From positions 1 to 64,000 of the forward strand of contig KZ538352.1 of assembly GCA_000934665.2 (NCBI GenBank): DNA of 64,000 nt, in the 5' to 3' direction. The translations under genes and the position numbers were made by a program. Of this stretch, positions 6,199 through 64,000 are shown one piece after another. Each line of letters begins with the position of its first letter. The first letter of the stretch is position 1. Below the pieces are notes generated by a model. That model was not told the DNA's origin, did no database searches, and worked only from the letters and a program-made list of their open reading frames with translations. The DNA comes from Catajapyx aquilonaris (taxonomy: Eukaryota).

Positions 6199-6894
6199 AT
6201 AAAATGATATGCTCCGTCTCATACTGAACATGAAGTTATTACAATCGCTCATTGTGTTGCCTCCTCGGAACCTCTTGATGTCTTCAACCCTGAATAATGA
6301 TAACAGCCTGTTATTTGCGTGCAAATCAGACGGAAGCACTAAAAATCTGGCTCAGCAAAAATCACAATGAAATTCCATCCTATTTTTAGTTACACATTTT
6401 TTATGCAAAAAAAACATGCCCTTGTAACTAAACATTATTTTTTTTGCTACTCTTCCGGTTCTATGAATATATGTGATAACTCGGAAGATCTCGCAATATG
6501 TGATATTTTTTTGCACAAAAATTTGCAAAAAAAAGTATCAATAAAGCAACGAGCGTCAGTAACGTACAATCACAAGTCGTATGATGCCTTTTATTACGTT
6601 GGTAGTGTGAAAAAGCAAAAATGAGTTGTAATTGGCGAAATCATGCAACTACTAGAGAGACCTCCTGCTCGCGTCATCATCTCCCCTCATCCAACCCCCG
6701 TACTCTCCTCTTCGCGAAAATCAGTTCGCGAAAATCTCCAGGCCAGTCTCTAGAGTGCTTCAAACCAGGCATATACAGTGCATGTAAACGACGCATGTGT
6801 CGCATCGATTCAACAAAAAAAAGCAAGTTAAGAAGAGTCACCTTCAAAAGTTTGCGAAAAAAAACAAGGCGGGGAATTTGCAATCTGATGAGAA

Positions 6895-15185: not shown

Positions 15186-17540
15186 ATGGACGTCAACAAG
15201 TACAGGACGTTCTTTGACCGGCAACCGTCCGGCGAGGGGAACACAGTCGAGACAGTTCGTGCCTTGCATCGCACAGTCATAGCTCTTCGGACTGAGCTGG
15301 AACGAGCCAAAGGGATGGACAATCCAGGAGAAAAGTCGGACAATGCGGACAGTGATGGTAGTGGACTGGACTATACTCTTAAGGTGGCTGAAGAGCCGGA
15401 GGAGCCAGATGACGACAGCACCACAGTGGACGATATTGAACTGATATTCACCACAGATGACACTAAGGAATTGCCGGAGTGCATGGAGACGCTGGTGTCC
15501 ATATCGGACGGGGAAGGCGAGGAAGAGGATAAAGAAAACAAGGGACGTCCTGTTCTACTGAAGTACCAGCAGGTTCGGTTCGACACAGACGATGTGAGAC
15601 CCATACTGGCAAGTAGCAACGCCCCGAAGCGTGAATCCTGTGCCCAAACACTCATCACTGCGATACCGAAGCAGTGGAAGAGTGAGAACTATCTGGCGCA
15701 CAGGTTTGCACCCGCAGTGCAGTTTGCCGCACTTCCTTCCAAGTTCAGCCTGCCGTCAACTCAACGTCGGGCACCTCCTCCGACAACCAAGCCTCGAGCA
15801 CTTCTCTCCGATCTGAATTTCACTAGCATGGTGCCAGAATTTACTCGCAGTGCTGACCGACTGAATGGATCTACTTCTCGCCGCACACGACGAGTACTGG
15901 ACAGTACTGGAGAGGAGCCGGACTGCTACAGTCGGGAGGGTGCTTCTGGGATGCGGCGGTGGCATCACGCTAGGGTGCCAGACACATCCCGACAGCAGTG
16001 GTGGTCAGTGCCGTCATCACCAGAACATGGATCTGGCGAACAGTTCCAGACTCCTGCTCCACTGCGCCGTAGTTGGTCATCGCTACCGGCATCTCCGGCT
16101 CAGGGGAAGCCTCGGAAGAAGGGACGCAAAGGGAAACACAAAGTTGCATTTGCTTCGATGCGTCCTTCTGGGTCCCTCCCTAATTTGGCCACGCCGGATG
16201 GTGACAGCGGCGGGTCGACAGACTCTTTAATTGACGAGGCGGAGGAGTTTGTACGCTCGTCAATCGACATGCTCCTGACACATGAAGACTGGGAGACCAT
16301 TGTACGCCGCCGGAAGCTCAGGCGTCGTTCGGAGCCAGATTTCGTGAGGGGCATCCCTATCCCTCTCTCCAGGCCGTTCCTGCCGAGGGCCAGCACTGAC
16401 CTGAAGCTGTACGACTACGTAAAAGTCATTCACCTGGGTGGGAGGGTCGGGGTCGGAAGGGTCAGGTACTCTGGTCATCCTCCAGGGAAGCTCGAGCCGT
16501 ACGTAGGTGTTGAGTTGGAAACGTCCTCAGGCGACTGCGACGGAAACTTCGAAGGGAACAGATACTTCGAATGGTAAGCATTGTATTTTATGCACCTTTT
16601 TTTTTTGTCACACTGTCGCATGACTTGTAGTACCATTTCTATTCAGAATTTGATGATATTCAATTTCTATGACTGGCCGAAAGCGATGGCAGAAAAAAAA
16701 AAAAGCTTAACTGATATGGGATTATAATGACGCTTGTCTTCAAAAAAGGGAAACTTGACGGCTCATTTGAAGGACAGCGCCATTGCCACTTTGAGGTCAA
16801 GCGTATGATTAATGACCAGTGAGTTGATCACACTTTAGTCGCAGGATGAAAGTGTCCGGCATTCTCCGAGTGCGGCAGGGATTAAGTCGCAGAAAGAAAG
16901 TAATAATAATAGACGACAAAAGCAAGAGTTGGCTTTTAACGGCAGCAATGCCGGTGAGCGACTGCAAAAGTTTTTTCCATGTTGGAAAAAGTTGCCTAAA
17001 ATTTTAACCATTACAGGCTCAGAACCTGGAAAAGTCCAGCCTTCAAAATGGAAATTACATGCAAATCGAAAGCCTTTGCTTATTTTTGCGCTTTTGACAC
17101 ATGCGGAGCGGTGCATCCGAATTGAATTTTTGCGCTGAAAGGGAAGTACATTTCCAGGGTGAATTATGCAGCCAGTGTCTGTTGTCCCAAGTATTGATTC
17201 CATGTACGTGACGCAGGATCGCATCAGTTTGAATCCAGCCATTTAATGAGTAAAAGTTTGCGGTTATAGGGTTAAAAAAGCACTCTCCTTTCATCCGAGT
17301 GCTTTTGATTCGAGTCAACAACTGTAAACAAGTTTTTTTTAAGTGAAGGGACTTTCGCAATCTTTGTGCATGATGTGATTACCTGTTATGTTGCTTCTTT
17401 GTGCGTTTATATAACGCAAGTTGAACTGGAGCAAGACGATTGATGAGTTTTTGCCATGTTCTTGTCTCACCTATAGCGATGCAGGGAGAGGTGTTTTTGT
17501 GCCGTTCAAGAAGGTCATCCTGGCCTGGGCAGTGCGATAG
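15186..17540 (+). CDS. Uncharacterised, largely disordered protein with a C-terminal CAP-Gly domain
   Basis: Exon 15186-16573 (...GRVRYSG...VGVELETSSGDCDGNFEGNRYFE, TG|GTAAGC) joins 17477-17540 (C-DAGRGVFVPFKKVILAWAVR-TAG), completing the CAP-Gly consensus. An in-frame stop lies upstream of the ATG; a probable 5'UTR exon ends at 12685. Confidence 0.85.
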
Positions 17541-29266: not shown

Positions 29267-32200
29267 TCACATCTTGAACGTCTGGAGGTAATTCTGCGGG
29301 AGGCTATCCAATTGCGATAAAAACGGTAGGGACACCAATCCTTCCTCTTCCTGGTCCACCTGCGAATAAACACAATCTTATAGTGGCCGCAACATTTTAA
29401 AAATTATGAGCAGCCGTACCTTAACAAAGTGGTGTCCAAGCAGTTCGGCCGCAGTTGCCCTTTGTCGCGGATCATGCTGCAAACATCTCTCAACGAAATC
29501 CTGCCCTTCCTCGCTCAGACTCTCGGGAACTGGCGGACACTCCCCAGTACCCACTTTGAACATTATCTGGTAGTTGCTTTCAAGATCGGCCCACGGACGC
29601 TGAAAAAAATTGAATATGTAGATCTTGTATTGCACTTCTAATTACTACGAGCCCACCTTTCCGGAAGCCATTTCGATTACCACGCATCCGACCGACCACA
29701 CGTCGGCAGCACGTCCATGCCCTTCCGACATGTTCTTCGTAAACACCTCAGGCGCCATGTATGCTTGTGTCCCGACGAATCCCCGGAGCTCCCCAGGCAT
29801 TGTCGTGTGCGCTCTAATCTTCGCGGCGCATCCAAAGTCGCCCAACTTCAAGCAGTTTCCGTCGTCGCTCAAAAAGATGTTGGCGCTCTTGATGTCCCGA
29901 TGAACCACTCCGTGATCATGAAGGCAGCAGACGGCCATCACCAGTTGATGCGTGTAGCGGCGTACTAGCGCTTCGGGAAGGCCGTCTTCCGTAGCTGCAA
30001 CCGCCGCTTCGAGCGTGCCTTCAGCGCAGTACTCCATGAAGATCAGCATCTCATCACGGTGAAGCTCAGCCCCATAGTGGCGGACCAAGTGGCGGTGATG
30101 GATCCCCTCGAATATCCGCAGCTCCTCGTACACAGTCCGAATCGTATGGGACACATCGCTCGGCTGCAACTGGATCTCCTTCATGGCCATCAGTTCGCCA
30201 GTCTGGTTGTTAACCGCTGCGTACACCTTTCCGAAACGACCTTGCCCTGAAAATACAATTTAGACGATAAAAAGTCTAGACAACACATTTTAATCGCATT
30301 ATCCTTTCCCCCCGAGAAACAACTAGCCTGAAAGTCACCCTCAAATGTCTGGCAAAATGAAACGACGCCGACAGCTGCATCTGCTCAACGACCCCTTCCC
30401 CATTTTTTTTTGGAGGGACGGACAGCAAAAAAAAACTAATGACATCCTACACTCCCATCAGTTCGGAGGAAACACATTCAAGATGAAGGCATGGTTATTC
30501 GTCCTCTTTGCATGTTATACGCAGACAATACTGGCCGACATACCCGAGGCAGGTCAGCAAGTTCACGTTCATGCTGACCCGAACTGGGTCATGCCCACAT
30601 TGGGAAGCACTCCGAAATCCAGAGGGTACGCGTATTATTTACATTCCGATAGCGTTGCATCTAACGGATTTAATTGCAGCGGAAAGAACCGCAAGAAGGA
30701 AAAGGTGCGGACTGAGGACGACGCCGTCGACGAACTTCCATCGCAAGTTGTTTTCCAGCGGTTGAATGAACGACTGGCTAGCCTCGCCTCGCTTGGAGAG
30801 CAGCAGCTTCGTCGCTTGGAGCAGGTCGAGTACCGCTTGACTAAACTGGAGGTGCAGGGTCAGGAGAAGTCCGAGGGGGTCAGGGCACAGGTAGCGGAGA
30901 TCACACGGAAGATGGACTCGCTGGATTGGGATCTAAGCAAAGTGGAGACGCTGATGGAAGTGGTTCGGCAGGACTTGGGCGGACTACGGCAGGGACACAC
31001 CGAAATCAGGATGGCCGTCGGATCAAAACCTGTTCAGGAAGGTCAACAGGATCAGACGGAGGTCATATCGAAGCTGCAGATGATCATGGCCACTCTGTAC
31101 GGGATGCGAGGAATGGGTTCGGCAATGAATGACGACATCGCTGTTCTTCTTAAGAATGTGACCAGCATCGTTAACGCCACCAGGTAATTTGAAATCCAGC
31201 CGCAAAATGCGATATGCTAACTTTTCCGTAGTTACCTCCAGTCTCGGGCGGAACAGTTGGTGACCAAGCAATACTTGCGGACACTACTTCTGGATCACGG
31301 TAACGCCGGAAATCCACCGCCGCAAGCTCAGCAGTACATGTCTGTCATTATGGCCGGTAAGTTTGTTCCCAGCTCTAATTACACATCTGATTATTAATGA
31401 CTATTGAACTGAAGATGTAGCCAAACCGGATGCGACGCAACATCCGACGGACTGCTGGGAGACGCTTCAATCGGGTCAAAACAAATCCGGGGTGTACCAA
31501 ATCCGACCCATGCGTTCCAGCTCGCCTTTCTTCGTCCAATGCGAGATGTCCGTCCGAGGCGGAGGCTGGGTGGTACTGCACAATCGTTACGAAGGAACAG
31601 TCGATTTCTATCGAGGCTGGTCGGACTACAAGCATGGGTTCGGCAATCTCGGCGGCGAGTTCTGGCTGGGGCTGGAGAAGATGCATCTAATCACGACGCA
31701 GAAGGTGTACGAAATAATAGTGGAGCTGCAGGACTTCTCGTTGAGCAATGCGTACGCTTATTACACCGCATTTTCCATCGGATCTGAGGTGAGTACGAAA
31801 TTTCTCATGGTGTTCGTAATAGCGAACCATACGTCAACAGGTTGAGGGCTACCCCATAACAATACTTGGAAGTTACGAGGGCGACGCAGGCGATTCCCTG
31901 ACATACCACGCCGGGATGAAGTTCTCGACTCGAGATGCGGACAACGACATGTGGGAGGACGGCGACTGCGCCCAGTCCCACTCAGGCGCATGGTGGTACA
32001 ACGGATGCGACACGGCCAACCTGAATGGCAGGTACCTCAACGGCAACCTTCCTCCGCAGTACGAGTACCAAGGGATGTACTGGTACGACTACCGTGGGCC
32101 TGCCTATTCGCTTATGAAGGCGCGGATAATGATCAGACCATGGGGAGCAAACGGGACTGTCGAGGAAAAGACGCCGGAGAACCCCGCGGAAGAAACGGAA

Positions 32201-35200
32201 GAACCCGCAGTGACGACTACGCCAACAGCAGATCAGCAATACGGTTGGAACGGAGCCGAGTACGAACTTGAGTTCGGCGACTACTGATCCCCCTAATTGT
32301 AACAATATAAATGTGTGTTAATTAACTCACCGACTTTGATCCCCCTTTGCCAGCTAAACGTGACGCTCTTGGCCCTGTAGTAGTATCGGTCCACAGTCTG
32401 CACGTGAACCACCTCCCCGATGACGCCTTCCTCCCGCAATTGCTGCTCACGTTGATGTTCCAGTTGGGCTACCGCATTCTGAACCTGCAGCATGTGCGGC
32501 AACACACACTGATTCACTGTAATACGGACCATTTGTTAATCGATCAGATGGTTCATAGTTACGCGGACTTACCTTGAAGCGACGGGACTTGAAGCGACTC
32601 GGCTAATGTTGAGTTGTGGGTCGGATCGTCGCTTCTCCCGGCCCACGACTGGCTGTGGCCTCGTCGCCTTACGACCGGACTGGCTGCAGGTTCGGCCAGC
32701 TGTTCTCTCGATGCGGCTAGGCTCTCTCGGAGCGATCCAACGTCCTGCATGGACCTGCTGGGCCGGTATGGTCTGCGGCTGAGTGGCGACGGAGACGACC
32801 CCCTGGAATGGCTTCCTCCGCCGCTTCCCGCACTGCCTAAGCTACGGGGCGAAGGAGTCTTATCCGCTGAGCCGATAACATGCGAAATGCATTTGTCGAT
32901 GCCGCCCTGTAGCTCCTCAAACCCGTCGTCGTCCAGGTACATCGTGTTGTGCGGATCGCACACGGTTATTAAGAAGTCCAGGCCCTGGTTGGCCCAACGA
33001 GGCCGGAGTCCGCGGCCTCTCTCGCACCGCTCAACCGCAAATGTCATCCACTGGCGGGCAAACGACAGCAGACCGGCCGCCTGCTTCCGACGAACCTCTC
33101 CAGTCACCAGCTTCCCAACTTCCTTATGATACTGCGGATAAAATGGCCCTTAAATATGGAACACCCCAGCTACAAAAACCGACGTACCTCGAATCCGAAC
33201 TTGTAGCACTGATGCAAGGTGTCACGTAACCTGGCCAACAACGCTGTCCGCTCGATCTCGTCAAGGTCCTCCACCTCCCGAAGATCGCACTTTATTTCAA
33301 TCTCCTGGATAGACTGGGATATTTGGTCGCAGAGGGTAAGCGATCCATTTTTCAGGGCCTCCAAAGACGCCTCGATGGCCGGACTGGACGCACACTGCTC
33401 CTTCTTCAGCCGCAGGCAGTCGCCCATTGCCTTCTGGAACTGACGTCGCTGGAGGGCCAACTGGGACGGATCGCATACGACCAGCAGAAGTTCCTCGACC
33501 TGTACGAAATGTGTTAAAATCGCGGTTGTGTACGACAGAAATGAGTACGAACCTCGAGGCGTGAGAGTGACGATGACGTCTCATTAGTCGGCCGGATCGC
33601 AACAGTCTCGCCTTCCCACGTATCCCCGTCCGCATTCTTCATTATGATTAAGTATCCTTCCTCATCCGACTCTCCTCCTTGCGGATGCGGCAGTGCGGAT
33701 GAGTCGCATCCATAGTGCAAGTCCAGCAGATGACAGATGTACCCCGGCCGTTGTCGAACTACGAGCGGAACTAGAAGAAGAGCGCTTGAGCAGCCTGGGG
33801 CGGACACACAAGCATGGTCCGTTTCTTTGAGGTGACGAAGGATCGCGGAGTATGAATCTTGGAAGGAGAACTCAGCCCCGATCTCCAGGTCCTTCCGTAG
33901 CGTCTTTGCGAACGCGATGGCTTTCATCGCACGCTCTCGGGAGTCGTGAAACACGCTCTGAGACTCACGGCAGATCTGTAGCATAACATGCCTGTAATAA
34001 ACATCCGTTAATAGTCGTACGCAACTGCTGACGTCTTAACTTACTTGAACGAATGGTCGTCGTCGTCGTCTTCAGCAACTTCCTGCAGCAGTGTCGACAC
34101 CAGTTCTTCAATGGCCTTTCCGAGGTGATCCCCGATTGCTCCCAACATGGAACAAGCCATCCGACAGAAGCTGTCTCCCGCCATCACCTCACCGCCGGGT
34201 ATGTGCGGACATGTGGCCTTCACGAACGCCCACTCTTCCTCCAACAAATTCTTCTGGTAGCTGTAAATGACCGAGTCGTCCTGCTGAAACATGTTGATCC
34301 ACTGCTGCAGGTACTCCAAGTACGCCTGGAGCATCGCCTTCACATTATCGTCAAACAGCTGCACCTCGCCTTTGTACTCCTCAAGTTTGTGCGGCGGTAC
34401 GTCCCAAATGGCCACTCGGATCATGTGCATATAGTTGCGTCTTTCGACCACGGCGGCCTTTAACGCCTCTTTGCACTCACGCATCAGTTGGCGGATACTC
34501 AAAGGCGAAGGCCGCTCGGGTTTTTGCTCCAGACGGATTTTCAGGCACTCGTGAATCACATCCAGCGGGATTCGGCATAGGAACAAGTAGAGCCCACGGA
34601 AAGACGGAAGCCCCATGGCTTTATAGGCACAGTGGGTTGAAGTCAAGTGGCAGTTCGAATACGCACGCATGCTGTTCCACTGGTCGCCACAACAGTTAGT
34701 CGAATCCTGCTGCAAATCGAACCAAATCAGCACCAAACAACCGTAATCAAACTAACAAACACTTACTGACGATGCAGATTCAACCTTCTTGACCAGTACT
34801 TTCCGCGTCTTGATCAGAATCGGCATGAACAGCCGATCCAGCATCTGCAGCATCTTCCGCAGTCCTTTCGTCTTGAGCAGCTTCTCCACGTACTTGCGGT
34901 ACGGCGACACTCCGTACATAGGTCCAAACGAGGTTGGGGTCGGCGGATTGGTGTGAGTCGGTGTGTGGGCCTGGGACCCGGCACCTCCGCCTGGATTCCC
35001 AGAGTCGCTTGAGTTGTTCGAGTCAGATGCGTTGTTGCTGAAAGCGCCATCGGGACTTCCCACATCCGACATGGAGAACTGGACGTGGTGCTTTCCGGAG
35101 TTTCGTCTTAATGGAGGTTCCAGCCGGTTGGACTTGAGGATATCGGGGCTTGTCATCTTCGTCGACTCATCGCCTGAATAAACGGATCGTTAGTATAATA

Positions 35201-37104
35201 TTTTCCTGTCGTTATTTTTCGGCAGACATTACCTGACGTGGAGTCCTCATCCTCGCCAAGCACCCGCGTACAAAAGTCCTGCCAGCACGGCCACGGTACA
35301 TTTGTGCAGCCAAGCAACGGCGTCAGCAGCTTCCCCAGGATATCAATGTGCAGTCGGAGCTGCGTCGTGATGTTATACCACGTGCAGAGAATTGAAACCC
35401 TCGATGTTAGCTCGGGACAACAGTACAGCTCATGCTCCTCGGCCAGCGCCTTCGTGGACGGATACAGCTGTTCGGACTGGTCCAAACGGCAGAGAAGATC
35501 CTCGACTTGAAGTAGCGCCTGGTTCTGACGATGTGTGCAATCCAAGCAGAAAACGTCTAGACAATTCTCATGCACCTGTCAAGTACGGATAAACGGTAAG
35601 CCACAAATACTGTAGTGCAGTCAGCAGACATTACCTCACCGGGCTTCTTCACGTCAAACACAAACGGATTGTGACGACTGCTCCCACCGGTCGATCCGTC
35701 CTCCAGATCACTTCCGATTGCGCTGTCCCCCTTTTCCTCTTCCTTTCCGCTGCTTCCGCCAGTTGTCGCATCGTTTCCGCCTGCCTCGAACTTGTAGGCC
35801 ATTATCTCCGTCAGCACCTGACGCACATTTCCGCGTGCAATACACAGCAGCGTGTCCTGTTCTGTCACGGGAAGGTCGGCATGATATGACTTCAGTTCCA
35901 ACCAGAGAAGATCCTTCACCTCATTCTGCCACATCTGCTCCTGATGGCTCTTCTGTCGTCCGTAACTGCTTTTGTTCTCGGTGTTCCCCAACTTTATAAC
36001 CTGCGGAAAACTCCAATTACGATATATTTGCATTATAAAATCATGGCGTACCTTTGAAAACGCTTTGTAGAAGTCGACCCGGTTCTGTGGACATCCGGCA
36101 GCTTGCTTCGGTGGCCCGTCAACCGCATCGTCCTTGTTGGTAACCAGCTTCGACGTGAGACACAAAAACCGTTTGCATGTCTCAACGGTCTTCATGTACT
36201 GCCTCAGAAGCGGGACACTCTCAGAACGATCCTCGGGTGGTCCAGATGACGAATCAAGTTCCGGCTCTTCCTCCCCAATTAGGTGAAGGGAAAGAGCGGA
36301 AAAGTCGGCCGAATCCCGCTTCATGTCTCGTTCAGACTCACGAAGCAGATTCAGAGAGCGTTTGCGCTTTCGCAGGTCCTTCTTGGTCGAGCTTTCACGC
36401 TCTCCGTCCTCTTCCTCTTCTTCAAAGTTGTCCGCCAGATCAGCGCTCATCGTCACCTGTTTGTTGCCAGCACGGCCACGAGCAGACGTAACTTTCACCG
36501 GGCTTCTGGACCTTAAGAAAAAAAAACGCCACAGTTACTGATCGCCATAAATACAGTCGAATTATAAGTCCATAACGTACGCTCTCTCCTCCCGCTTCCG
36601 GAATGACTTGAGCCGCTCCAAGATGCGGGTCCGAGGTGGCGTGGACCCGTACTTGTAATACCCCAAGGCTTCATCTTCGTCCAATATCGCATTGAAATGC
36701 TCCTCGTCTATTGACTTGGCAGTAGCGTCAACGTCAGTGTCCACACGCCCACTGCCAGACTCAGTCCTGCAAAATTAGTGCAAAAATCTTGCTACCCCAA
36801 TATGGTTACTGTTGGCAAATTACATTAAACGCAACATTGTTCGCAAGATCATCAGACATGCTGCAATAAGAGGCCAGCATTACACATCACAGTTCAACGA
36901 TTGATAACACCACAAACACAATGGGTGAGTAAGCATGAAATCACCCTCGGCTGCTAATTTTCTGACAAATTCACGATGACACGAAACCTTCTTGATAAGC
37001 TCAGAGAAACTACTTGTCCAATCAAGTCATACTCCAATATTACCTATTTCCTGGAAATACTATAACTACTATAATTATCAATTTTCATTATTACTATTGC
37101 AACA

Positions 37105-39088: not shown

Positions 39089-41159
39089 ATGACTCAGGTA
39101 AAAAAAAAATGGGGTTCAAAAAGGATGTACTGCATTTTTAACTTAACAAAATTATTGTTATTTAGAACACATTCGAGCCATTATTTCCGCACTTCCCACA
39201 AAAATCATTACTCGTTTTGCAGCCTCCGACTGAGTCGCAGCAGGCGCTTCAGAACTTCTGGAGCAAAGTGACAGACGAGATCCGCAACATGAACATAAAC
39301 GACTTCAAGCAGCAGGAGCTTCCGTTGGCGCGCATCAAAAAGATAATGAAACTGGACGACGACGTGAAGATGATAAGCGCGGAAGCTCCGGTGCTGTTCG
39401 CAAAAGCAGCGGAGATATTCATTCACGAGCTGACCCTAAGAGCTTGGATCCACACGGAAGACAACAAGCGTAGGACGCTCCAGAGGAACGACATCGCCAT
39501 GGCCATCACAAAGTTTGACCAGTTCGACTTCTTAATTGACATTGTACCGCGAGACGACCTCAAACCTGCGAAAGCTAGGGACGAAGGGGCCGTCAGAACC
39601 ACCTCCATGCTTCCGGACCAAGTTCAATACTACTTTCAGCTAGCGCAGCAACATCAAGCCGCATTGCAGCAATCGCCTCAGGTACAAGAAGCCGGCACCC
39701 AGTAAAAACCAACCGAATTTGATTAAACAAACCAGTGCATGATCCGCTTCATTTTCTTGCTGCGGTACTGTTCGCTCGGCAATAAAATAGTTGCTACTTT
39801 CGCCTCTGATTAATCGTTCAGCAATACGAATCGCTCACATGTAACAATCGCATTTTGTTACCATTTCATTGCTCAGCAAATCCTTCACAACATGTAAGCT
39901 TGTGAATGTTTCGCTCAGCGATTGAATAATTTGGGAGCGAACCAAACTATTCATTTGATTGCTCAGTGAATCGTTCTCATGTAAACCTGTATAAGTTTAT
40001 ACACTTGATCAATTTGCTTGGCAATTGAATTGTTTGGGAACGAACCAAACAACTAGTTTGATTGCTCAGCGACTGGTTCGCACATAAACCTGTAAATGTT
40101 TACACATGATCAATTCGCTCAGGGATTGAATCAATTGTTCGCGAACAAACCAAACAATTCGTCTGATTGCTCAGCGAATCGTTCTCATAGAAACCTGTCA
40201 GATGTTTACACATGATCAATTCGCTTAGCGACTGAATTGTTTTGGAGCAAATCAAACCATTCATTGCTCAGCGAATTGCTCACATGTAAGCACACGTGTG
40301 CAAATGGATCAGCGATTGAATTGTTCAGGAGCGAACGCGATTTGTTACTTTTGCTCATCGCTCAGCAATATATTGCTTGTTGCGGCTCTTGTTGTTTCAC
40401 ACAACATACGATGTTAGTCATTTTTGCAGTACTTTTAAAGTCTTATTCGACATGAATTTGTGACTCATGTTCATAATCTCCCGTTCCTTTCTGCATGTGT
40501 AAATACTTACGCTGTACTGTCGACTCTTGTAGCCAGCGACGCAAGCACCGCAGACAGTCCAGATCATCCAGCAGAGCGGGCAGGTACAAGCAATTAGTGT
40601 CCTGCCGAATCCAGCTGGTGCGTCTACAACCACAACGAGCGCAATCCCTGTAGCGGTGCCTACTGTGACGACACAAGACATCAAGCCGCAGCCGACGCTG
40701 ACAGTGACGCAGCCGTCCCAAGTACAAGTGGACCAGACTGTGACGACCCAGTCCGTCGCCACAGTGCAGCAGCCGCAGGTTATACAGCTGCAAGCGCCGC
40801 AGCAGCAACAGCAAGTTGCGGTGGCTACCAGCAATAGTGCGGCCAGTGCGGCGGCAGGTGGCGGGATACAGATAATCCAGCAGATCGTTGGTCCGGGCGG
40901 GGAGATCCAACAGATTCCGATCCAGCTAACGCAGGCGCAGCTTCAGATGATCCGGATGCAGATGCAAGGCGGAACAAACCAGCCGATCATAATCCACACG
41001 GCGCCAATTCAAACGGTGCAGCAGCAACAGCAGCAGCAGGTGGCGCAAAGCGGTCAAGCGCAAATTATACAAATCGCGGCATCGCAAGCGAACGGATCTG
41101 TATTCCTCACACAGCCGCAAGGCCAGGTGCAGGTTACACACGACGCAGGACAGGAGTGA
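39089..41159 (+). CDS. NFYC: Nuclear transcription factor Y subunit gamma
   Basis: Histone fold [80 protein letters not shown] and a Q-rich C-terminus. Exons 39089-39097, 39166 or 39223 to 39681, and 40533-41159. Confidence 0.96.
39860..40340. repeat. Diverged ~105-bp tandem repeat in an NF-YC intron
   Basis: Recurrent TTGCTCAGCGA...GAACCAAAC...TGATTGCTCAG...AAACCTGT...TTTACACATGATCAATTCGC units, about 4 copies. Confidence 0.75.
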
Positions 41160-41364: not shown

Positions 41365-43970
41365 TCAAAGGATCCTTTCATAGAAGAGAAGGTACGCTTG
41401 GCTCCGCAGCACCTTTTCCTCCATCACCTCCCTCACCATACTATCACTCACATGATACCAACGTCCGACATCGTCGTCTCCCCCCACTGCTTCATCCGGC
41501 TCCGAACTGACCTCGGGTCGCACCCAATCCTGACCCAGCATCTCTTTAGCAAGACTCTTAGAGTCGCGACGTTGCGGCAACGGATGAATATTGAGGAAAC
41601 AAACCCGACGTTTCACCGGCTCAGCCAGACGTGCCTGCGAATCAATCGTTATTAATTGTTTAACGTATGCGACAACAGTACGTACCTTCACGTATGCAAT
41701 GTAATGTCCGCCACTTAGTGTCCCGCTGTGTTCAACGACCGCGTAGAGCGAGTACAGTATTTTCTGCTGGTTACGCCTCATCGTCGGCAATCCCTGCAAC
41801 GGTTACGTTGTAAGAAGCAGCGGTTATCGAAGCTGGTTAGTACTTACAAGGCACACTTGGGAACAAAACGGCGAAAGATCAAGCGTCAACGGGAATGCGA
41901 CATGCCGGTTGACTTTCCGCAAACCGCCGTTTCCGCACTGTTGAAACCGTTTCAAGTGCAACGTCAGAACGGCCGGCGGACTTAAAACCAGCATCTGCTT
42001 GCTGCAAATAGTCCGCACCAGATCCTTTTCCCGTCCGCCGCTCTTTTTAGTGCAGTTTTCGCATCCGAACCGGTTTGTGCCGGTCAGCAACTCCGCCATC
42101 GTCAGCTGGTTCAGGCAGGATTGAACCGAGCATTCGCCATGCTGGCTTTGATATCGGGACGAGAGTGTCTGCTGGCTGCGGACACTCCACGCTTCCTCCT
42201 CATCATCCCGGACGTCATCACCCCCGTCGAGATTAAGCGACGACAAACGTTCCCTCGCTTCCTCTAACGTATGTCCGAACAGCTCATCCTCGTTGTCCTC
42301 TATATCCGCATCGGAGTCATCCGATTCGCTCTTTCCGTCGTCCGGCTCGCCGTTTTCAACGGTTTGAACACATTCACGGTTGCTGTCGACACTCGACTCT
42401 TTCTTCTGCCTTGCTCTCCGTCCGGCATTCTTCTTCCCATCCCTTCTCCCCGCTTTCCGGCCACTGCCACCTTTCCTTTCCGCCACAACCGCCACCTCCT
42501 TTCCGGCTTTCCGGTGGCTCCTCGGCGGACTCTTTTCCTCAATCGTCGGCAGGCTTAGGTCCATAAAAGGCTCTAACACCTGCGACGCTTTCGTACACTC
42601 CTTGCAAATAACGGTCGACAGAATGTGGCCGCCGAATATGGCGTCGACCAAAGTCTGGGTTGCCTGTTGGCCATACATTTTGATGCGGCGGCGGGTCTCT
42701 TCGCTTACGGTGCGTGGGTCGACCTTCTCGGTTAGATCAAGCGAGCGAAGAATCCCAGTTTTGTATCGCTGTAAGTAGGCGTAATTAGTACTTCGTGTCG
42801 ATGCTATGCGACGGAACGTACCCGTATCTCCTCCGTTTTAATCCCGTCCAGCAGGTGCCGCAACAACTCATGCGAATCCTGCTGCTGAAACCCGCGGAAC
42901 TGCGGACTCCTTCTGGACACCTGCGCAAAAAGCTGCCCCACATGCGCCGCCCTATTGTGTCCATGTGCCGCCATGTCCTTAAGCAAGCAGGCCAAAGACG
43001 TCGTAAGCGGACCTGCCTCGGGAAGCGTCACCTCCAACGACGGCTGCAAAAAGTACGAATCAGCAAAATCGCACCACGAAACGTACAGCAACATACCACC
43101 GAATCCTGGTTGTCCTTAAGCCCCGGCAAATGCAGCTTCTGTCCCCATTGCGTCGTCAGAACTTGGTTCAAAAAGTGAGTCTGACTTAACGACTGCAGCA
43201 CCGCATTCAGGAAGCAAGTGTTGCCTAAGTTGCCCAAACCCTTCCGATGGAAAAGGTGCGATTAGACTGTGCGGATCATACGCTTCATGTTGACATTACC
43301 TTAACTTTGGGTATGGCTCCTTCCAGTGCCGACTGCATGTTCTTGGCATTCTTTTCGTCCTTCTCCATAATGGGGTCCATACGTTCTGCGCCGCTGCTTG
43401 CCGGTATGTTGCTCTCGAAGGGGACGGACATACCTGCGATACAATCCAGCTGGTTAATTGCTACGTACGCTACTAAACGTGGTACTAACCGTTAAGGAGC
43501 ACGGCCTTCCTGGGAATCCCGGCCTGCTTCCGGATGAAGTCGACGCACTCCTGCAGCTTCCGGTTGGCCGTGGGGTTGACCTGCTCGTCGCACGAGTAGC
43601 ACCAGACGTTCCATCCCACGGTGCTGACCGCCATCCCATGCGGATCAGACCTAGCCGCGTTGACATGGGCCAACGCGTGCTTATGTCGGCTGCTCCTGTC
43701 GCACCCCCTGTGCCCGCACCTGAGGCACATCCAGACCCCTGGTTTCTCAAAGTCCGGATCCTCCTCCTCCTCCTCCTTCTTCTGGTTGCACTGCTGGCAT
43801 TCCTCCAAGGCTGGGTCCTTCAGGAGGGCCTTCCTAACCTGGGTGATGTTCACACACTTCCCCACATGGCTGCAGGCTCTGCTGGCGCCCAACTCCGCCT
43901 TCTTCTCATCATCAGACGACCCCGTCGACTCGTTCCCGGCCGGATCCTTCTGCCTCTTGTTCTTCACCAT
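41365..43970 (-). CDS. USP16/45: Ubiquitin-specific protease USP16/USP45 family (zf-UBP plus USP catalytic domain)
   Basis: zf-UBP motifs VWMCLRCGHRGC...HALAH...WCYSCD; Cys box GLGNLGNTCFLNAVLQ; QQDSHELLR; His box VEHSGTLSGGHYIAYVK; WYHVSDS...QAYLLFYERIL. ATG at 43970 (MVKNKRQ). Confidence 0.94.
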
Positions 43971-45844
43971 CTTTTGGCTGCTCGAATGGCCCTCAACAGG
44001 CGAGGAAAACCCTTCGAATTCGACTCGAAAAAGGCCATTCGAATTTAATGCGTGTGTGTCATTCGGGCGCCATCTTGGATTTTCCCTTCTCATGCCGTCC
44101 CAGTGTCGCCAACCAGTACAAATGTTGCCAACATGACACTTTTAGAACGGTTCGAAACATTAATGTCATTAAATATCGTAATAATAATAATGGCAATTGG
44201 ATGTGCATATATTTTAATAAATTAAATTAAATTTAGCCGGTGGTGTTCTGGAAGCGCGGGTAATTCAAACATGACTCTCTCTCTCTCGAGGCTGGTCATC
44301 ACTTGGGTCATCACAGGTCAAGACTACAGGTTACTCGTCTCTTGGCAACGCTTTGTAGCCATTTGCGTGCGTCGTGCTCAAAGAGTTCTGCTAACGCTCC
44401 ATAGCTCTTGCTACTACGTACTACATGAATGGCCGTACCACCTAAAGCAAGAATAGTTCACATAATGAGCAGTACTTTGCAAATCAACATGTAAGATTAT
44501 TTACTAAACCATCCTATGTATGTACTACAGTATGTATGTGTCGTATTCATATATGAACTTTGAAACGCTGCGCTGCAGTGGTTTGGCCAGCCGCCCATTT
44601 ATTTAACATCAAACGACTTGCTCGTTGCCAAAAAATTAATAGTCTCGTGCATATCCAGATTGGATTCGCCTGATCCTGCCTACAGATTAAAGGAAGAGGG
44701 GGAAGAAAAAAAAAAGGTGCGGCCAGTTAACTGGTCACACCTCCCCCCTGGCAGAGCAGAAGAGTGGGGGTCTCTTTCTTTGACCTCTTTGAGAGTTTGA
44801 GAGGGGCTGGCTCAGTCTGAAAAGGAAACCTTCCTTTTCAATCCCTCTTTTTTTTGTTGGGTTCTCTGTGTTTCCCTTTGACCCAACCCGCCCGCCTTAG
44901 GGGGGGCATGTCTCAAACCCATCCATGCAGTACATGGCTGTCGCACTTTGCTTACCAGACCTCGACATTACCATATGGGGTACCACATGTTGTCAACAAA
45001 TTCGGATTACATGTCAGAATGGCCTTATATCACTTAGATCACGAGTTCATCTTATGGCCTTAGTAGCCTACTAGTGAACACTTTGCCAAGGCAAAACGTG
45101 TAATCAGAATGACAGTAACAATCAAACAACTTATGAGACTATAGTTCCATCCACCAGAGGCGCTGTCTCCCCCATTGCGCAGGCGCAGAACGGGGGCCAA
45201 TCGGAAGCTTCGCGTAAACAATATATGGCAGGCCAATCAGAAACATCGGTCTAGGTATTACAAATGGACCGCCGATTTACCAATTAGTGCTGTTCTTCAC
45301 GTATAGATGGCACACTACCCTGTCTGCACACTCGTGCCACCTTCAGGACGTGCGAGAGATAGCGATACTATCAGGTCGGACAAACATCAGACGGAGAGAA
45401 TAAGACTATTAGGATTGTATGGCCTTAGTTGCCTAAGATCACTCTAATGGCCTTAGTAGCCTTTCTTGTGTCCTCTGTTGACTATGATCTATCTTATGGC
45501 TTCAGTTGCCTATCTTTGAGTACAGGCCGCCATAAACGTGCTGGTTTGGTAGGTTTTCTTTGGGATGGTTATAGAGGGGGGGCATGTTCTCTCCCCCCCC
45601 CCCCCCCCCCCNCCCCCCGCCAGGTTTTTTCCACCTTCCCACCCATCCCCTCTCCTTCTTTTGACGGCTCCAAGCCAGCGATTGGTTGGCTTCCAGAGCG
45701 GCAACACTTGGGACGTTGTAATGAGCCCAGGGCAGAAGAGGGCCGCCCGTCGTGAAAGGGTAGCTGCTCCTTCTTGGGGGGCTTCAGTGTTCCTCCAACT
45801 TTCTTCTTCAGCTGGGGTGGTGTGACCATCATGGACAAGTGACA

Positions 45845-48800
45845 ATGGTGACAATTATTCTTCTGGTGGTGGTGCTGATGACCCGGATGGTCTCAGGTCA
45901 CTCTGAATTGGATGGAACTCGTGGCAGGTGCGAGAGGATAACCATACCGATGTGCCAGGGTATGCCGTACAACATGACCTCGATGCCCAACTACCTAGGT
46001 CATCAGGAGCAGTCCGAGGCAGCCATTGAGGTACGCTTTTATCTGTTCCCAATAATTGGTCACGCTTCTTTTTTTTGTTGGGGGGNGGGGGGAACAACCA
46101 AGGGCGTGTATTGGCATGACTGGCCAGTACCTGAAGGTACCCACACAACCACAAAAAATGGTGAATAACACGCCCGGATGATTGGTCTACGGTGCAATAA
46201 ACCAGGTGTTGATTGCATCACGATCAAGACACCTCGGCCACATCAGCATAAATTATACAACCCCGGTCGTAAATAGCGTGGCCGGGTATAGTTGAAGGCC
46301 CTCCTACTTCAAAGCTTTACACTTAGCATATGAAAAGCACTAGTTTTCATGTAACTTCAACTACTTCCAGGAGTGTACCGCCAAGTTAGTACTACTTCTA
46401 TATAGTATATATAGGATTTTTGGGAGTGTACCACATGAAGAGTAAGAGGGCCGTTAACTATACCATTAGTATAGTTGAAGACCTTCATACTTCATAATGT
46501 ACCATGCGCATCAGTGTTAATTAGTGCACTGAGAATTTCACCTAACAGCAATTAATTTTCACTCAACTTCAACTACTTCCAGGATTTTGAAGTAGTGTAC
46601 CGCCAAGATTGTTATGATGAAGTAAGAGGGGTGTTAACTATACTATTCTAGCCGGGCTTTTGTGCTGTCAAACTTTTTGAAAAACGATTCGGGCGCCCGT
46701 CAAGACGGCGCGAGAATAATAGCCCGGCCATATAATTAGCCCCCTTCAATTTAAAAAAAAACAACTTGAAAATGACTTTGCCTTATTGTCCACATCATCA
46801 GGTACACGAGTTCATACCACTGGTGGAAATAGGATGCAGCAAGCACCTTCCTTTCTTCCTGTGCTCTCTGTACGCTCCGATGTGCAGCGAGCAGGTGGAC
46901 GTACCCATACCGTCATGTCGTGGTCTGTGCGAGGAGGTCAGGTCAGCGTGTCTCCCTGTACTGGCCAAGTTCAGGTTCAGCTGGCCTCGAGGACTCAACT
47001 GCTCCAGGCTGCCCGTGCCCGAGAAGAACGGACTCTGCATGGAGTTCCCCAACATCACGGAAGAGAGGACCAGAGTGGTCAGCAGCAACGTCCAACAGGT
47101 CAGGCATCATTACCATATACGATTTCGTATCACTATTATTATAGTTAAACTATAGCAACGGAGACCTACATACTTCACACTGCCCGTTTTTTCGTGATTG
47201 GATGCCATGGTCACTCGTTATTGCCATGGCAATATGTTGCGGTGGCCACCCGTTGTCACGGCAATCGGTTGCTATTAACATCCGTTGCCATAGCAATCTG
47301 CTGCTGTGGACACCCGTTGCCGTAGCAATCTGTTGCTATGGACACCCGTTGCCGTAGCAATCTGTTGCTATATGTACACCCGTTGCCATAGCAATCTGTT
47401 GCTGTGGACACCCGTTGCCGTAGCAATCTGCTGCTGTGGACACCCGTTGCCATAGCTATCTGCTGCTGTGGACACCCGTTGCCATAGCAATCTGTTGCTG
47501 TGGACACCCATTGTCTAGGCAATCTGTTGCTGTGTGTAGACCCGTTGCCATAGCAATCTGTTGCTGTGGACACCCGTTGCCGTATAGCAATCTGCTGCTG
47601 TGGACACCCGTTGCCATAGCAATCTGCTGCTGTGGACACCCGTTGCCATAGCAATCTGCTGCTATGGACACCCATTGTCAACTAGGCAATCTGTTGCTAT
47701 ATGTACACCCGTTGCCATAGCAATCTGTTGCTGTGGACACCCATTGTCTAGGCAATACGTTGCTATATTTATGTAGACCCATTGTCATGTATTAACGACA
47801 TATAATTTGACCAACAGCATCATGTGGAGGATTCGTCACCGGTGTGGACGGACCAGATGTTTCCGAAGATGGACGATGAGCACCAGTGTCCGCCGAGGTT
47901 TGCGTACGTCAGCTACTCGAGGCCAAGACCCGTGTGTGCACCGAGGTGCGGATCGGACGTGTACTTTACCACGGAGGACAAGAGGTTCGCGGAGGTGTGG
48001 ATGGCCGTTTGGGCGTCGCTGTGCTTCGTGTCGACGCTCTTCACCATGCTGACCTTTGGACTTGACCCTGCCCGGTTCCACTACCCTGAGCGTCCCGTTG
48101 TCGCGTTGGCCTTCTGCTACAACGTGTGTTCCGTTGCGTACCTGGTACGCGTGGCAGTCGGTGCATCGTCCGTCTCGTGTGCCAGGACCGACGCCGGCGA
48201 CGCCTACCTGGCCGTCGAAGGTCTGCCCACCACCGGTTGCGTCTTAGTCTTCCTGGTGCTCTACTACTTCGGACTGGCCGCCTCTGTCTGGTGGGTCGTA
48301 CTGGCGCTGGCCTGGTACCTCAGCGCCGCAAGACAATGGTCTAGCGAGGCGCTCCAAGTAAGTGCTTGTCACGTGCTAATTGCAACCTGTTGCTACGAAC
48401 GAACACCCCTTGTCATGGCAATCGGTTGCTATTAACATCCGTTGCCATGGCAACCTGTTGCTATTGACATATCCGCTGCCATAGCAACCTGTTGCTACGA
48501 ACACCCCTTGTCATGGCAATCGATTGCTATTGACATTCGTTGCCATGGCAATCTGTTGCTACCAACATCCGTTGCCATGGCAATCGGTTGCTACGAACAT
48601 TCGTTGCCATAGCAACCTGTTGTTATGGACACCAATGGTACTTTTTTTGGGAGACAATGTGTCTCTTTGGAGGAAATGTACCTCGTACTGACTTCGTTGT
48701 CTTCCAGGCCAGGTCGCCGTACTTCCATCTGGCTGCCTGGGCATGTCCGGCGTTGCTGACCATCGGCGCCTTGGCACGACGGCACGTGGATGGCGAAGAG

Positions 48801-49346
48801 CTGACTGGACTGTGCGTGGTCGGAGGTGTGAACCGTGATGCACTTCTGGCCTTCTCCGTACTTCCCAACCTGGTATGCTTCGTCACTGGTGTTGTCTGCA
48901 CGTCGTTGGCCCTCGGTGCGCTCCTACGTGTCAGAAGGGCGGTCAGGAAAGACGCTCGGGACGCCCAGAAGCTGGAGCGCCTTCTGGTCCGATTGGCGCT
49001 GTTCGCTGCATTGTATGCGGTACCAACAGCCTGCGTGGTCGCCGCACAGTTTTACGAATACTTAGGCAGACCACGCTGGCATACCCTAGCACACGTGTCA
49101 GCTCTAGAGTGTCAAGCCAGCTCATCCGAGTGTCCATTGCGGTCTAGCATACCAAGTACGGAGGTGTTCATGCTCCGTTTGTTCATGACCATGGCCGTCG
49201 GTATTACGTCGGGTATGTGGGTATGGTCAGCCAAGACTGGCCGTGCGTGGCAACGTTACTGTTGCTGCTGCTGCGGTATGAGTGCGCCAAACAAGACAAT
49301 GCACAACACCGTACACTACAGACTAGCACCCATCAGATGCACTTAA
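45845..49346 (+). CDS. FZD10: Frizzled-9/10 subfamily Wnt receptor
   Basis: Signal peptide and CRD (CERITIPMC...YNMTSMPN...AAIEVHEFIPLVEIGC...FFLCSLYAPMCSEQV), which best matches FZD9/10 from memory. Also HYPERPV, YFHLAAW and KTGRAW. Exons 45845-46030, 46802-47098, 47818-48357 and 48708-49346. Confidence 0.9.
46286..46643. mobile_element. Two tandem ~177-bp MITE-like units in Fz9/10 intron 1
   Basis: Units 46286-46463 and 46469-46643 each begin GTATAGTTGAAG.CC.TC.TACTTC and end GTAAGAGGG..GTTAACTATAC (imperfect ~25-bp inverted termini). They share internal ACTTCAACTACTTCCAGGA and AGTGTACCGCCAAG. Confidence 0.7.
47205..47790. repeat. 32-bp minisatellite in Fz9/10 intron 2
   Basis: Unit GACACCCGTTGCC(A/G)TAGCAATCTG(C/T)TGCTGTG, about 16 copies. 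Confidence 0.95.
48380..48632. repeat. Related, more diverged ~31-bp minisatellite in Fz9/10 intron 3
   Basis: Units such as ACATCCGTTGCCATGGCAACCTGTTGCTA, about 8 copies. Confidence 0.9.
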
Positions 49347-50525: not shown

Positions 50526-51403
50526 TTTTATTATGAGCCCATTCGTATACATTACCGTTTGTTAATTATCGGTCGATCACAGCCTGAAGCATTTTTTTAA
50601 AAAAAATAAAAAAATCTATCCAATTTTCTCCACCTTATCTATCCTGTTCATCACATTAAACATCNCCCCCCCCCCCCCCCCAAAGAAAAACCCAGCTGTC
50701 TTGGTTCCAAAAAAAAAAAAACATCAGTGTTTTTCAGGTACCGGCGCGGTTCTTAGTCTCCCCCCAAAAAAGAGGACCTCAGGACCTTGAAGCCCTACAA
50801 ACATGCAATTTGCATCGGAGAAAAGAAGAGGCGTGCAAGGTGCGGCGTGAGGAGTGGTAAAAAGGAACATTGGAAGGTAGAGGAGGAGGAGGTGGTGGGG
50901 GGTTAACCATAAATTTCGTTGGTATTTCGTACCCTCAGGGTGAATGGAGCCCATGTCATCGGCTCCGTCTGGGGTTCCTTGTTCATCAGACAAAGGACCC
51001 CGAAAAATTTTTAAGAGGAGGGGGTGCTGCTGGGGAGGGGGTGCAAAGAAAACCAGCTTTTCAATCCGGCAAACCATCCCTTTTTAATGAGGATGGTAAT
51101 TACAGGTACGACGCCCCCCTCTCCTTATCCGGGGAGGGTGTTAATTGGGCACGACAACGACCAAAAGACGAACGACTGTCGTCTGAACAGTGCGGCTTTC
51201 CTTTTTTTTGTAAGCACGTATGTTCCGGTTTTAGGAGGGCCAATAAAACTGTAAATCAGGGGGTGAATCTTTCATGTGCCGCCCAAGCTGGTTTTCCAGA
51301 CCCTGTTTACATCGGAGGGACCCCCAAAAAAGATTGCCCCCCCCCCCCCTAAAAAAAACGGAAAGGGGGCGGAGATTCATACGTGCCAACCTGGCCCATT
51401 TGC

Positions 51404-51552
51404 NNNNNNNNNNNNNNNNNNNNNNNNNNNNNNNNNNNNNNNNNNNNNNNNNNNNNNNNNNNNNNNNNNNNNNNNNNNNNNNNNNNNNNNNNNNNNNNNN
51501 NNNNNNNNNNNNNNNNNNNNNNNNNNNNNNNNNNNNNNNNNNNNNNNNNNNN
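51404..51552. other. Assembly gap (N run)
   Basis: Run of Ns. Confidence 1.
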
Positions 51553-61400: not shown

Positions 61401-63552
61401 CAAGCCCAGATATTTACGACCTGTTTGCAACGACTGGTGCCAGATTGGTTCAAAATAAACCCATTTCAGCCTCCATATATTTTAAAAATAATATCAACCT
61501 AAAAATGAGCGAACCCAATAATTATTGCCAGTTTGCAGCCTTGACTTCAATACGACGATCAAACTAACGCATCTCCAGACCATCCAGACCAAGGGGTTGA
61601 TGAACCCGATTATACACTGTCGCCCCCCTTTTACAATGTGACATAAATATTCAGCTCACATAATTTACATACTTGCTCACATGCTCCTTGACACACTACT
61701 AGGGGGGGTTCACATGGGTCGTTTGTATGGGTTTGGATGACCTATCAGAGAGGGACACGCGTAATAGCCGCACGACCACTGGCCGCCATTTTGTTGAGGC
61801 TATCGGCCATTTTGTAGCCGTGGCTGTGACGTGGCACGATGTGATTGGCTGATTCAACCGACTGGCCGCCATTTTGTTGCGACTGGCGGCCATTTTGTCG
61901 CTAACTAGTCGCAAACGACAGACGGCTATGTGAACCCAGTTTTTTTTTTTGAGCGATTCTTCCGCACTAACAACCATGCTGTCCCGCCATTTATCTGAAC
62001 TCAGGCGGGGAATAAATTAGAGGTCAATCAGGGCAGGTGAGGCTCGGGGTTCGGTGAAGTCGTGCCTCAGATAAATTATGCAGCTCGTTAGAAGGCGGAG
62101 GTGCCTTTAGGTCGGGAGCTTAGAAAAAGAACCCCCCCCCCTTTCTTTTTGTTGTTGTTCCTTTTCCATGTCCACAGCCCCAGTCTTTTTAGATCCGGAG
62201 GAACAATGGAGGCAGCGATAGCAATGGGGTGGAACGCCCGTTACAAGGCCAAGGTATACTGCGGTCAGGTTTTTCAAAACCGCAAAGTACTGTCCGGTAA
62301 CGTCCAGAAGAACCAGAAATATGTGCCTAGAGGTTGTTGCACTCAGCATATGACACCCCACTAACCATCCCAGTATGTGTAGGCTTGTTAACTCGTTAGC
62401 GGCCCGTCACGAATCCATCCCCCTTTCCTCTAGGGGTCTTAAACATTATTTTTTTATTTAAAAAAAAAAAAAACGTTTTCCACGCGACCACTTTCTCCAG
62501 TCTTTTATGGCCTCCTTCAAACTGGGCAAGGTTTTTCTGTATCAATTGACGCATCTTTATGGTACCTCTAATCTGGGTCTAATAACGCCCGAGGACCTTC
62601 CACTGTCAATCAACTCTTATTATGGAGATGGCCAGTGTCTATAATTTAAAAAAAATAGTCCAGCCCACGCCCATTTCCCGTTCCCGAGCGAAGCGAGTGG
62701 AGCCTCCGCCCTAGAAAAATCCTCGCTTCGCTCTCGTTTTTGTAATGTGCAAGCTCAGAAAACCACTTGCTCCTAGAAAACCGCCCTCGTTTTACTAGTT
62801 ATTGTTTAAAAAATATATTTAATATGTTCGCAACGAAATATTTATTGTACAAAATGTTGGCACTTTACAATGACTAAAAATATTTACATTGCGTCTGTAC
62901 AATGACTACAATCTGAACACAGTGTCCAAAATAGGTCAGGATAAAATGGCACCTTAAACTGGAAGTAAACGTACTGTACAAACATGAAAGGCACGTAAGA
63001 AATCACAGGGGGGTGTTTCCAGTCTCCAATAAGCGTACCGGGGAGTAATTGAGTACCGAGGATAATTACAAATATTGGCAATATGTAAAACCAGCTTTCA
63101 CTCAAGACTCAAGGCTTGAGGTCATTATTAGTGGCTTAATGACGGCCCACATTTTTTGTTTAAAACAATTAATGAGATCGGACTCTTGAACACTTTGTAA
63201 TGGCACTGTACATGTTGGCACTAAATGCATCGTCATGGGAACAATTGGCATGCATATCACCGGACTTTACACTAGTTTACACATATTCTCAGGATGCATC
63301 GTAGCACCACCTGCGATGCTCATCGTCCAAACAGTCCCCAACCAACGTCCATCTCCTCTCCTCCTGATGCTCAGGTCTTCTCCTCTGCTGCTTCTTGGTA
63401 GCCACAGTCTTCCTACCGGCCACCACCTCCTTCTCCATGAACCGCAGTTCCCATGAGAACCTGTCCGAGTCAGAGGCCAGGTCATCTGGCTCTTCGGTCC
63501 ATGGTTGATGCTGAGGAAGACCTTGAGCTGGTCGCTGGTTGGGTGCCCCCAG

Positions 63553-64000
63553 TCAGACTGCTGTCTCGCTGCCCCACCTCCGATGACCATGCTTGCATCT
63601 GTGGGACGACCTGTGGTGTCTGCCAGGTACAGCCACTAAAGGTGCTGCTGCAGCAACCACAGGACTCTGGAGGTACGGAGGCAACGGCTTCTTCTTCCTG
63701 GCGACATGCCTGAACAGCCTGGTCCACGCCTGGAGTGTCTTCCCACTCCATACCCACATCCCTGAGGTAATACCCACCACTAGGGACATGAATATCTTCA
63801 GCATGAACACCTCCATGTTAGGCTGCGGCAGGGACGTCAATGGCGACCCAGGAGGAGGTGCTGCCAACCACCGTTCTCGTGACAGGTACTCGTAGAAGAG
63901 ACTTCCAACCACACACGCTGCTGGTATGGTGTACAGGAAAGTGAAGAACCCGATTCGAGTCGTCAGCACCTCCAGTTTGTCCGCCTTGTTCAATGGCAGC
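63553..64000 (-). CDS. FZD4: Frizzled-4 subfamily receptor, 3' end only (runs off the window)
   Basis: KADKLEVL..RIGFFTFLYTIPA, EVFMLKIFMSLVVGITSGMWVWSGKTLQAW and C-terminal GSETAV, compared with vertebrate FZD4 GSETVV. Confidence 0.88.
   Translation of the reverse strand, partial: LPLNKADKLEVLTTRIGFFTFLYTIPAACVVGSLFYEYLSRERWLAAPPPGSPLTSLPQPNMEVFMLKIFMSLVVGITSGMWVWSGKTLQAWTRLFRHVARKKKPLPPYLQSPVVAAAAPLVAVPGRHHRSSHRCKHGHRRWGSETAV

Follow-up and report, generated by a model that had tools for sequence, protein, structure and literature searches.

We analyzed a stretch of 64,000 nucleotides (nt) of contig KZ538352.1 of Catajapyx aquilonaris (positions 1 to 64,000, hereafter the window), whose right end cuts into a Frizzled-4-type (Fz4) receptor gene on the minus strand. 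The stop codon of this gene is a UGA followed by a C, and the 87 codons that follow it in frame carry a statistical coding signature that ends at the second stop codon. We regard the gene as a credible single-genome candidate for functional stop-codon readthrough, a reading to which we give about an even chance. We infer translation of the extension, readthrough as its mechanism and an effect on the binding of PDZ domains to the receptor.

The Fz4 frame is open from position 63999, at the window edge, down to the TGA at 63555-63553, and the rest of the gene lies outside the window. These last 148 codons (63556-63999) encode the sixth and seventh transmembrane segments and the cytoplasmic tail, and they match the Pfam family PF01534 (Frizzled/Smoothened membrane region) with an E-value of 1.3e-23 over profile positions 219-321 of 322. 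The region of the N-terminal cysteine-rich Fz domain falls beyond the window end, and the assignment of the gene rests on the last 148 residues. A search of these residues against longer proteins gave 216 matches at E <= 1e-5, of which the best named ones, annotated as Frizzled-4 or frizzled-4-like, come from an onychophoran, a millipede, molluscs, annelids and decapods (Euperipatoides, Chamberlinius, Pecten, Penaeus). The Fz4 assignment was made, without a tree, from these best matches and from the tails ending in GSETxV that are common to this gene and its Fz4 matches. Among the matches listed, the tail motif PLPPYLQ[AS]P is found only in this gene, in P0013 and in P0029 (Macrobrachium shrimp).

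In translation, the peptide reads ...KTLQAW...PLPPYLQSP...HGHRRWGSETAV and then meets the TGA. The KTLQAW motif (63724-63744, minus strand as are all the features of this gene) fits the membrane-proximal KTxxxW of Frizzleds, which has a role in the binding of Dishevelled. The last four residues of the canonical product, ETAV (63556-63567), form a class I PDZ-ligand-type C-terminus, as judged from the translation and from the tails of homologues, and fit the pattern [ST]-x-hydrophobic at a free C-terminus. The preliminary description of this DNA had the stop and what follows it right: the TGA (63553-63555) has a C at the +4 position (63552) and is followed by a CTG codon (63552-63550), giving the context UGA-CUG, and the frame then stays open for 87 codons (63292-63552; LGAPNQ...WCYDAS, exactly the peptide given there) to a second TGA at 63291-63289, in the context TGA-G. 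Four codons further on there is an in-frame TAA (63279-63277). The remainder of the 3' untranslated region (3'UTR), from 63288 to the AATAAA at 62846-62841, is AT-rich (GC 0.28-0.43) and has negative codon scores in every frame. The extension peptide is hydrophilic (grand average of hydropathy, GRAVY, of -1.4) and has a high content of R, E, D and Q. It includes a basic cluster, KKQQRRR, at residues 53-59 (63376-63396) that by eye resembles a nuclear-localisation signal. The extended product would end in Y-D-A-S, outside the class I pattern.

The stop codon is real in the available assemblies. The region was present in five sequencing runs, four from the probable source sample and one, X5, from a second sample; none is on record as RNA. 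Contigs of the probable source sample (X1 and X4) and of a second sample whose library type is not on record (X5) match the window letter for letter over the stop and the extension. One X5 contig is collinear with the window from 63610 to 62907, and thus spans the stop, the full extension and 380 nt past it with no difference, indel or joint. Since the contigs of two samples agree over the stop and the extension, an assembly slip or a sequencing error is ruled out as the origin of the TGA. Between two X5 contigs there is an uncovered stretch of exactly 61 nt (63611-63671); our guess is that one differing base near 63641 would explain a hole of this length in a 31-mer assembly. A recent nonsense mutation is also ruled out, by the conservation of the ETxV end among Fz4 homologues. 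Among the 120 matches listed of the 216, 47 end in ETx[VIL] and 96 in [ST]x[VIL], and hence the stop right after ETAV is the ancestral, conserved end of the protein.

The coding signature of the extension is seen in its composition, its codon usage and its codon phase. The GC content is 0.57-0.60 over 63300-63650 and 0.36-0.40 over 63050-63299, and the maximum-likelihood change point, searched from 63552 to 62950, falls at 63287-63291, that is, on the second stop. This bears out the earlier observation that a GC-rich, coding-like composition stops near that codon. For codon usage, we computed a per-codon log-likelihood ratio of coding against non-coding trimers, with 24 long, protein-like open reading frames (ORFs) of the same window, 4542 codons in all, as the training set. 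The Fz4 frame of the extension scores 0.329, next to a mean of 0.326 (standard deviation 0.119) for 96 windows of real coding sequence; the two other sense frames score 0.206 and -0.15, and the rest of the Fz4 3'UTR -0.5 to -0.9. Of 237 ORFs outside the training set that run for 60 codons or more without a stop, only 2 attain 0.329, and by our reading some of the top scorers among these ORFs overlap apparent exons omitted from training.

Codon phase was scored with the overall composition divided out. The extension then has +0.044 in the Fz4 frame, where the Fz4 coding sequence has +0.042, and the other two sense frames and the three antisense frames are all negative (-0.003 to -0.157). Compared with 134 coding windows, this score ranks at the 28th percentile, and the margin by which it exceeds the other frames at the 42nd. 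Of 5000 random windows of non-training sequence, 2.6% reached the score (1.4% for the margin), as did 1.6% of 3000 shuffles that stayed open. Base and codon position are associated within the extension (chi-square 16.1, p = 0.013, a value reached by 116 of 5000 open shuffles), and the p-values of the next two 261-nt blocks of the 3'UTR are 0.30 and 0.84. All five stop trinucleotides within the extension sit in a single off-frame. As controls, we took the ends of four other genes of the window (Fz9/10-like, fibrinogen-like, USP and NF-YC-like). Their extensions count 4, 2, 11 and 51 codons, the downstream GC is 0.35-0.49 with negative codon scores in every frame, and none has a TGA-C stop.

How often such a configuration should arise by chance can be roughly estimated. 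Shuffling the extension leaves its frame open in 2.3% of cases when mononucleotides are permuted and in 3.8% when dinucleotides are preserved, and at least 87 codons are open after 2.0% of the 3831 stop trinucleotides in the non-training sequence of the window. TGA-C makes up a few per cent of ordinary stops. Taken together, an open frame (about 2%), a TGA-C stop (a few per cent) and a phase signal (about 2%) should meet by chance in less than one gene per genome, and several genes showing this combination are to be expected in a pancrustacean in which some hundreds of genes undergo readthrough. This arithmetic assumes independence, borrows rates from fly and mosquito and does not separate readthrough from other routes of translation, which is why we put readthrough no higher than at even chances.

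Readthrough at this stop would also fit the clade. Abundant functional stop-codon readthrough in Pancrustacea was reportedly described by Jungreis et al. in 2011. The MEKK4 gene adjacent to Fz4 has as its top nine matches copepods (Tigriopus, Eurytemora, Lepeophtheirus), insects and one JGI record, at 51-57% identity, and this homology suggests that the host is a pancrustacean, one without close annotated relatives in the databases searched. Jungreis et al. 2016 (PMC5100048) estimate readthrough at at least 5% of the stops of Anopheles gambiae and 6% of those of Drosophila melanogaster, describe it as abundant in most of the insects tested and in the crustacean Daphnia pulex, and do not find it so outside Pancrustacea. 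According to the same report, TGA-C is the context of 36% of the mosquito candidates, although few ordinary stops have it compared with other contexts. The statement of the preliminary description that UGA-C is the leakiest context and that readthrough is common in insects and crustaceans is in line with that account, in which readthrough is abundant in Pancrustacea and TGA-C is the preferred, most enriched context. Like the genes of the pancrustacean set, Fz4 has a TGA-C stop and a coding-looking extension in the upstream frame that ends at the next stop. However, that set was defined by PhyloCSF on aligned genomes or by genome-wide statistics, and the Fz4 case is known from a single genome.

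If the stop is read through, a fraction of the ribosomes would pass the leaky UGA-C, a near-cognate tRNA decoding the UGA and inserting an amino acid. Translation would then proceed through the 87 further codons and end at the TGA at 63291-63289, with the TAA four codons on as a backup. The product would be a minor receptor isoform with an extra tail of 88 residues, hydrophilic and probably disordered. The membrane-proximal KTLQAW would be unaffected in this isoform. In contrast, ETAV would become internal and would cease to act as a canonical class I PDZ ligand. Binding by class I PDZ domains requires the free C-terminus and its carboxylate, and the long isoform should therefore lose the scaffold binding conferred by ETAV.

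The strongest competitor of readthrough is an ordinary, untranslated 3'UTR that happens to start with a GC-rich, purine-rich and T-poor block (T 17%), which is hence poor in stops and whose coding scores are by-products of composition. We hold this explanation to be tenable but on the unlikely side. In its favor, the extension lacks stops in two of its three sense frames and has only one stop in one antisense frame. The preliminary description had placed the second open sense frame (hereafter frame B) at 63267-63590; the frame exists but is longer, with 122 codons at 63267-63635, and overlaps the last 27 codons of Fz4 and the entire extension. The same source took the region to be generally poor in stops, which holds insofar as two sense frames are open and does not in that shuffled sequence so rarely keeps the Fz4 frame open. 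Frame B has a positive codon score too (0.206), and an 87-codon open frame after about 2% of non-training stops means that many should occur per genome by chance. Several observations are hard to reconcile with an untranslated block. The phase test, which is free of composition, still singles out the Fz4 frame among all six, with about 2% of controls reaching its score, and the composition boundary falls on the second stop. Moreover, a downstream block that is GC-rich or scores positively is missing from all four control gene ends, and neither a tandem repeat in the extension block nor a second copy of it within the window was found that could explain it.

A number of results weigh against readthrough, and several of them also speak for an untranslated 3'UTR. 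All the statistics given above rest on 87 codons and on a small training set from the same window. The codon-usage score of the extension gives only p = 0.055 against dinucleotide shuffles, and it exceeds that of frame B by a small amount, 0.12, which ranks at the 4th percentile of coding windows. Frame B is open throughout the extension, which is unusual (a second open frame is found in 1.4% of open shuffles), although less so by the standard of real coding sequence from the window, in which 20 of 134 stretches have one or the other off-frame open. In windows of 30 codons, frame B, the +1 frame, outscores the Fz4 frame over about the last 40 codons of the coding sequence and the first 15 or so of the extension. 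This may be noise in a low-complexity tail (63520-63670), though the true frame there ends in the conserved GSETAV. The earlier view of the extension as coding-like is favored by codon usage, phase, composition boundary and control ends, and weakened by the frame B margin and the dinucleotide shuffles. We also considered that the real tail might lie in frame B and be reached through frameshifts; this was rejected, as the Fz4 frame ends in GSETAV like the orthologues.

Homology does not help the case either. The extension had no match at E <= 0.001 among 1,835,955,588 representative proteins, and a search of longer proteins with the Fz4 tail plus the extension scored 990 candidates, none of which passed. 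A Pfam search of the extension, frame B, the third sense frame and three antisense ORFs gave no family, and the best feature score for the extension in the ESM Atlas, 0.78, pointed to bacterial hypothetical clusters and was uninformative. Over the last 148 residues, the nearest Fz4 relatives identified share only 39-60% identity with this gene, and they offer no alignable 3' region. A scan of metagenomes for Frizzled gave 63 loci, all distant and none with a PLPPYLQ tail. Their stops were located by walking the matched frame, so that some of these ends may be exon ends. The best tblastn match of the extension against the 63 loci had an E-value of 0.78. Fourteen of the loci end in ETx[VIL], with TGA in 11, TAG in 2 and TAA in 1; the +4 base is C in a single one of them, and their extensions run over 2-46 codons (L011 leaves its contig after 8). 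Across all 63, the length of 87 codons is reached only by L050, with 120 codons, which is not of Fz4 type; two others run off their contigs. Since the 14 distant loci vary in their stop and rarely have a C at +4, these sequences indicate that neither a leaky stop nor a long extension is an ancient feature of Fz4 as a whole. The extension, if functional, is lineage-specific, a point on which the metagenome loci are too distant to judge.

The search for RNA signals was equally negative. The preliminary description had raised the possibility of a stimulatory stem in the downstream RNA, which folding did not bring out. Folds at or after the stop of 63, 103, 113 and 161 nt have z-scores of 0.03, -1.29, -1.33 and -1.92 (200 dinucleotide shuffles per fold), none of them significant and none a convincing stimulator, and the best local hairpin begins about 50 nt past the Fz4 stop. 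Rfam gave no selenocysteine insertion sequence (SECIS) or other family above threshold over 62600-64000; the sole match is to a microRNA model with an E-value of 0.89.

It is also conceivable that the block is coding and is reached without readthrough, by alternative splicing, as a separate downstream ORF or in frame B. We find this quite unlikely. Splicing from a donor at 63577 to an acceptor at 63461 would remove 117 nt in frame, and with them ETAV and the stop, and a candidate intron of 67 nt (63577 to 63511) would lead into frame B, which is open for 122 codons. A separate ORF could start at the sole in-frame ATG (63438-63436) and would count 49 codons. However, every donor matches at most 6 of the 9 consensus positions, the acceptors lack a good pyrimidine tract, and the X5 contig (library type not on record) crosses the region collinearly without a joint. 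The peptide of frame B is rich in W and R, belongs to no Pfam family and has the lower codon score. The signal of the Fz4 frame is strongest over 63519-63429, upstream of both the acceptor at 63461 and the ATG, and for this reason we favor entry through the stop codon over these routes. Recoding of the UGA in another manner, by selenocysteine insertion or by A-to-I editing to UGG, is highly improbable: the stop is indeed the UGA that both routes need, but no SECIS reached the Rfam threshold in 62600-64000, the folds show no long duplex around the stop, and the stop is identical in the contigs of the second sample, though contigs hide minor variants.

We found no paper on the subject in a literature search for stop-codon readthrough in Frizzleds. 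There are nevertheless close parallels to a readthrough of Fz4 in published lists. Supplemental Data S1 of PMC5100048 includes D. melanogaster fz2-RB, with a TGA-C stop and an extension of 112 codons, classified as 'Ancient' and also present on the 2011 list, as well as its A. gambiae orthologue AGAP010442, with a TGA-C stop, an extension of 45 codons and a double readthrough of a further 21 codons. Like the gene described here, these Frizzled receptors of Pancrustacea combine TGA-C with a long extension (of 112 and 45 codons, compared with 87). However, fz2 is a Fz5/8-type paralogue whereas this gene is of Fz4 type with an ETAV end, and fz2 readthrough rests on the coding signatures of multiple species whereas the Fz4 case rests on one genome. 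Further counting against Fz4, fz4 is absent, as is fz3, from Supplemental Data S1, the list searched. The extension protein search detected no similarity between the extensions of fz2 and Fz4. Pancsa et al. 2016 (PMC4999894) describe the extensions of fly as typically disordered and of low complexity, without Pfam domains and with little conservation among distant orthologues. The Fz4 extension matches this profile, since it has no Pfam family, no homologue and a hydrophilic composition. A more distant likeness is found in the mammalian AQP4ex/AQP4x (PMC6444679; bioRxiv 10.1101/2023.07.21.549379), also a membrane protein in which a readthrough tail alters scaffold-dependent anchoring. AQP4 differs in being a vertebrate protein with an extension of 29 residues and the context UGA-CUAG, validated experimentally, and its extension promotes anchoring while that of Fz4 is proposed to remove docking.

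A broader and more doubtful proposal, which we think unlikely, is that readthrough of UGA-C is a recurrent device of pancrustacean Frizzleds, used in fly and mosquito fz2 and in Fz4 here to switch the cytoplasmic tail at the level of translation. In this proposal, the long isoform would bury the PDZ ligand and add a charged, disordered tail with KKQQRRR, and by analogy such a basic tail could send the receptor, or a tail fragment cleaved from it, elsewhere, for example to the nucleus. DFz2 carries a C-terminal PDZ-type ligand too, and a C-terminal fragment of DFz2 has been described as going to the nucleus. On this proposal, the ratio of short to long isoforms would tune scaffold-dependent Wnt signalling with transcription and splicing unchanged. 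If Fz4 is read through, it would be a second class of Frizzled whose cytoplasmic tail is altered by readthrough. It would also provide a concrete case of readthrough removing a C-terminal docking motif, with the scaffolding of a Wnt receptor regulated at translation termination. If it is not, the gene has an ordinary 3'UTR with an unusual GC-rich start. Tests on a single genome, such as codon usage, phase, composition boundary and control gene ends, can rank candidates of this kind without relatives.

A second Frizzled gene lies tail-to-tail with Fz4 in the window, about 14 kb off (45764-49346, plus strand). Its Fz cysteine-rich domain is at 46736-47152 and its membrane region in the ORFs 47806-48432 and 48534-49343. 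The gene ends in ...HYRLAPIRCT and a TAA followed by C, with an extension of 4 codons. It lacks the [ST]x[VIL] end that most of the listed homologues have, and its true last exon may differ. A 32-nt tandem repeat occurs at 47221-47746 (16 copies) and 48402-48626 (7 copies), with higher-order periods of 162, 98 and 64, apparently in the introns of this gene, and yields long spurious ORFs on the minus strand. Runs of N, which are assembly gaps, occur at about 51400-51500 and 46100 and appear as X in ORF translations.

Several other genes were recognized in the window. Three tandem transporter paralogues of the Major Facilitator Superfamily occupy 1368-9524 on the plus strand, as ORF pairs at 1368-2462, 4776-5895 and 8361-9524 with very similar peptides, and a CAP-Gly protein is encoded at 15135-16577 on the same strand. 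The many-exon MEKK4 (MAP3K4) gene runs over 29645-36534 on the minus strand, with the kinase domain at 29648-30259 and the Pfam domain MEKK4_N at 34044-34751, and a gene for a fibrinogen-C-domain protein (30327-32287) is nested against it on the opposite strand. Finally, a USP with a zf-UBP finger is found at 41365-44141 on the minus strand, and an NF-Y/histone-fold protein with a Q-rich tail at 39166-41159 on the plus strand.

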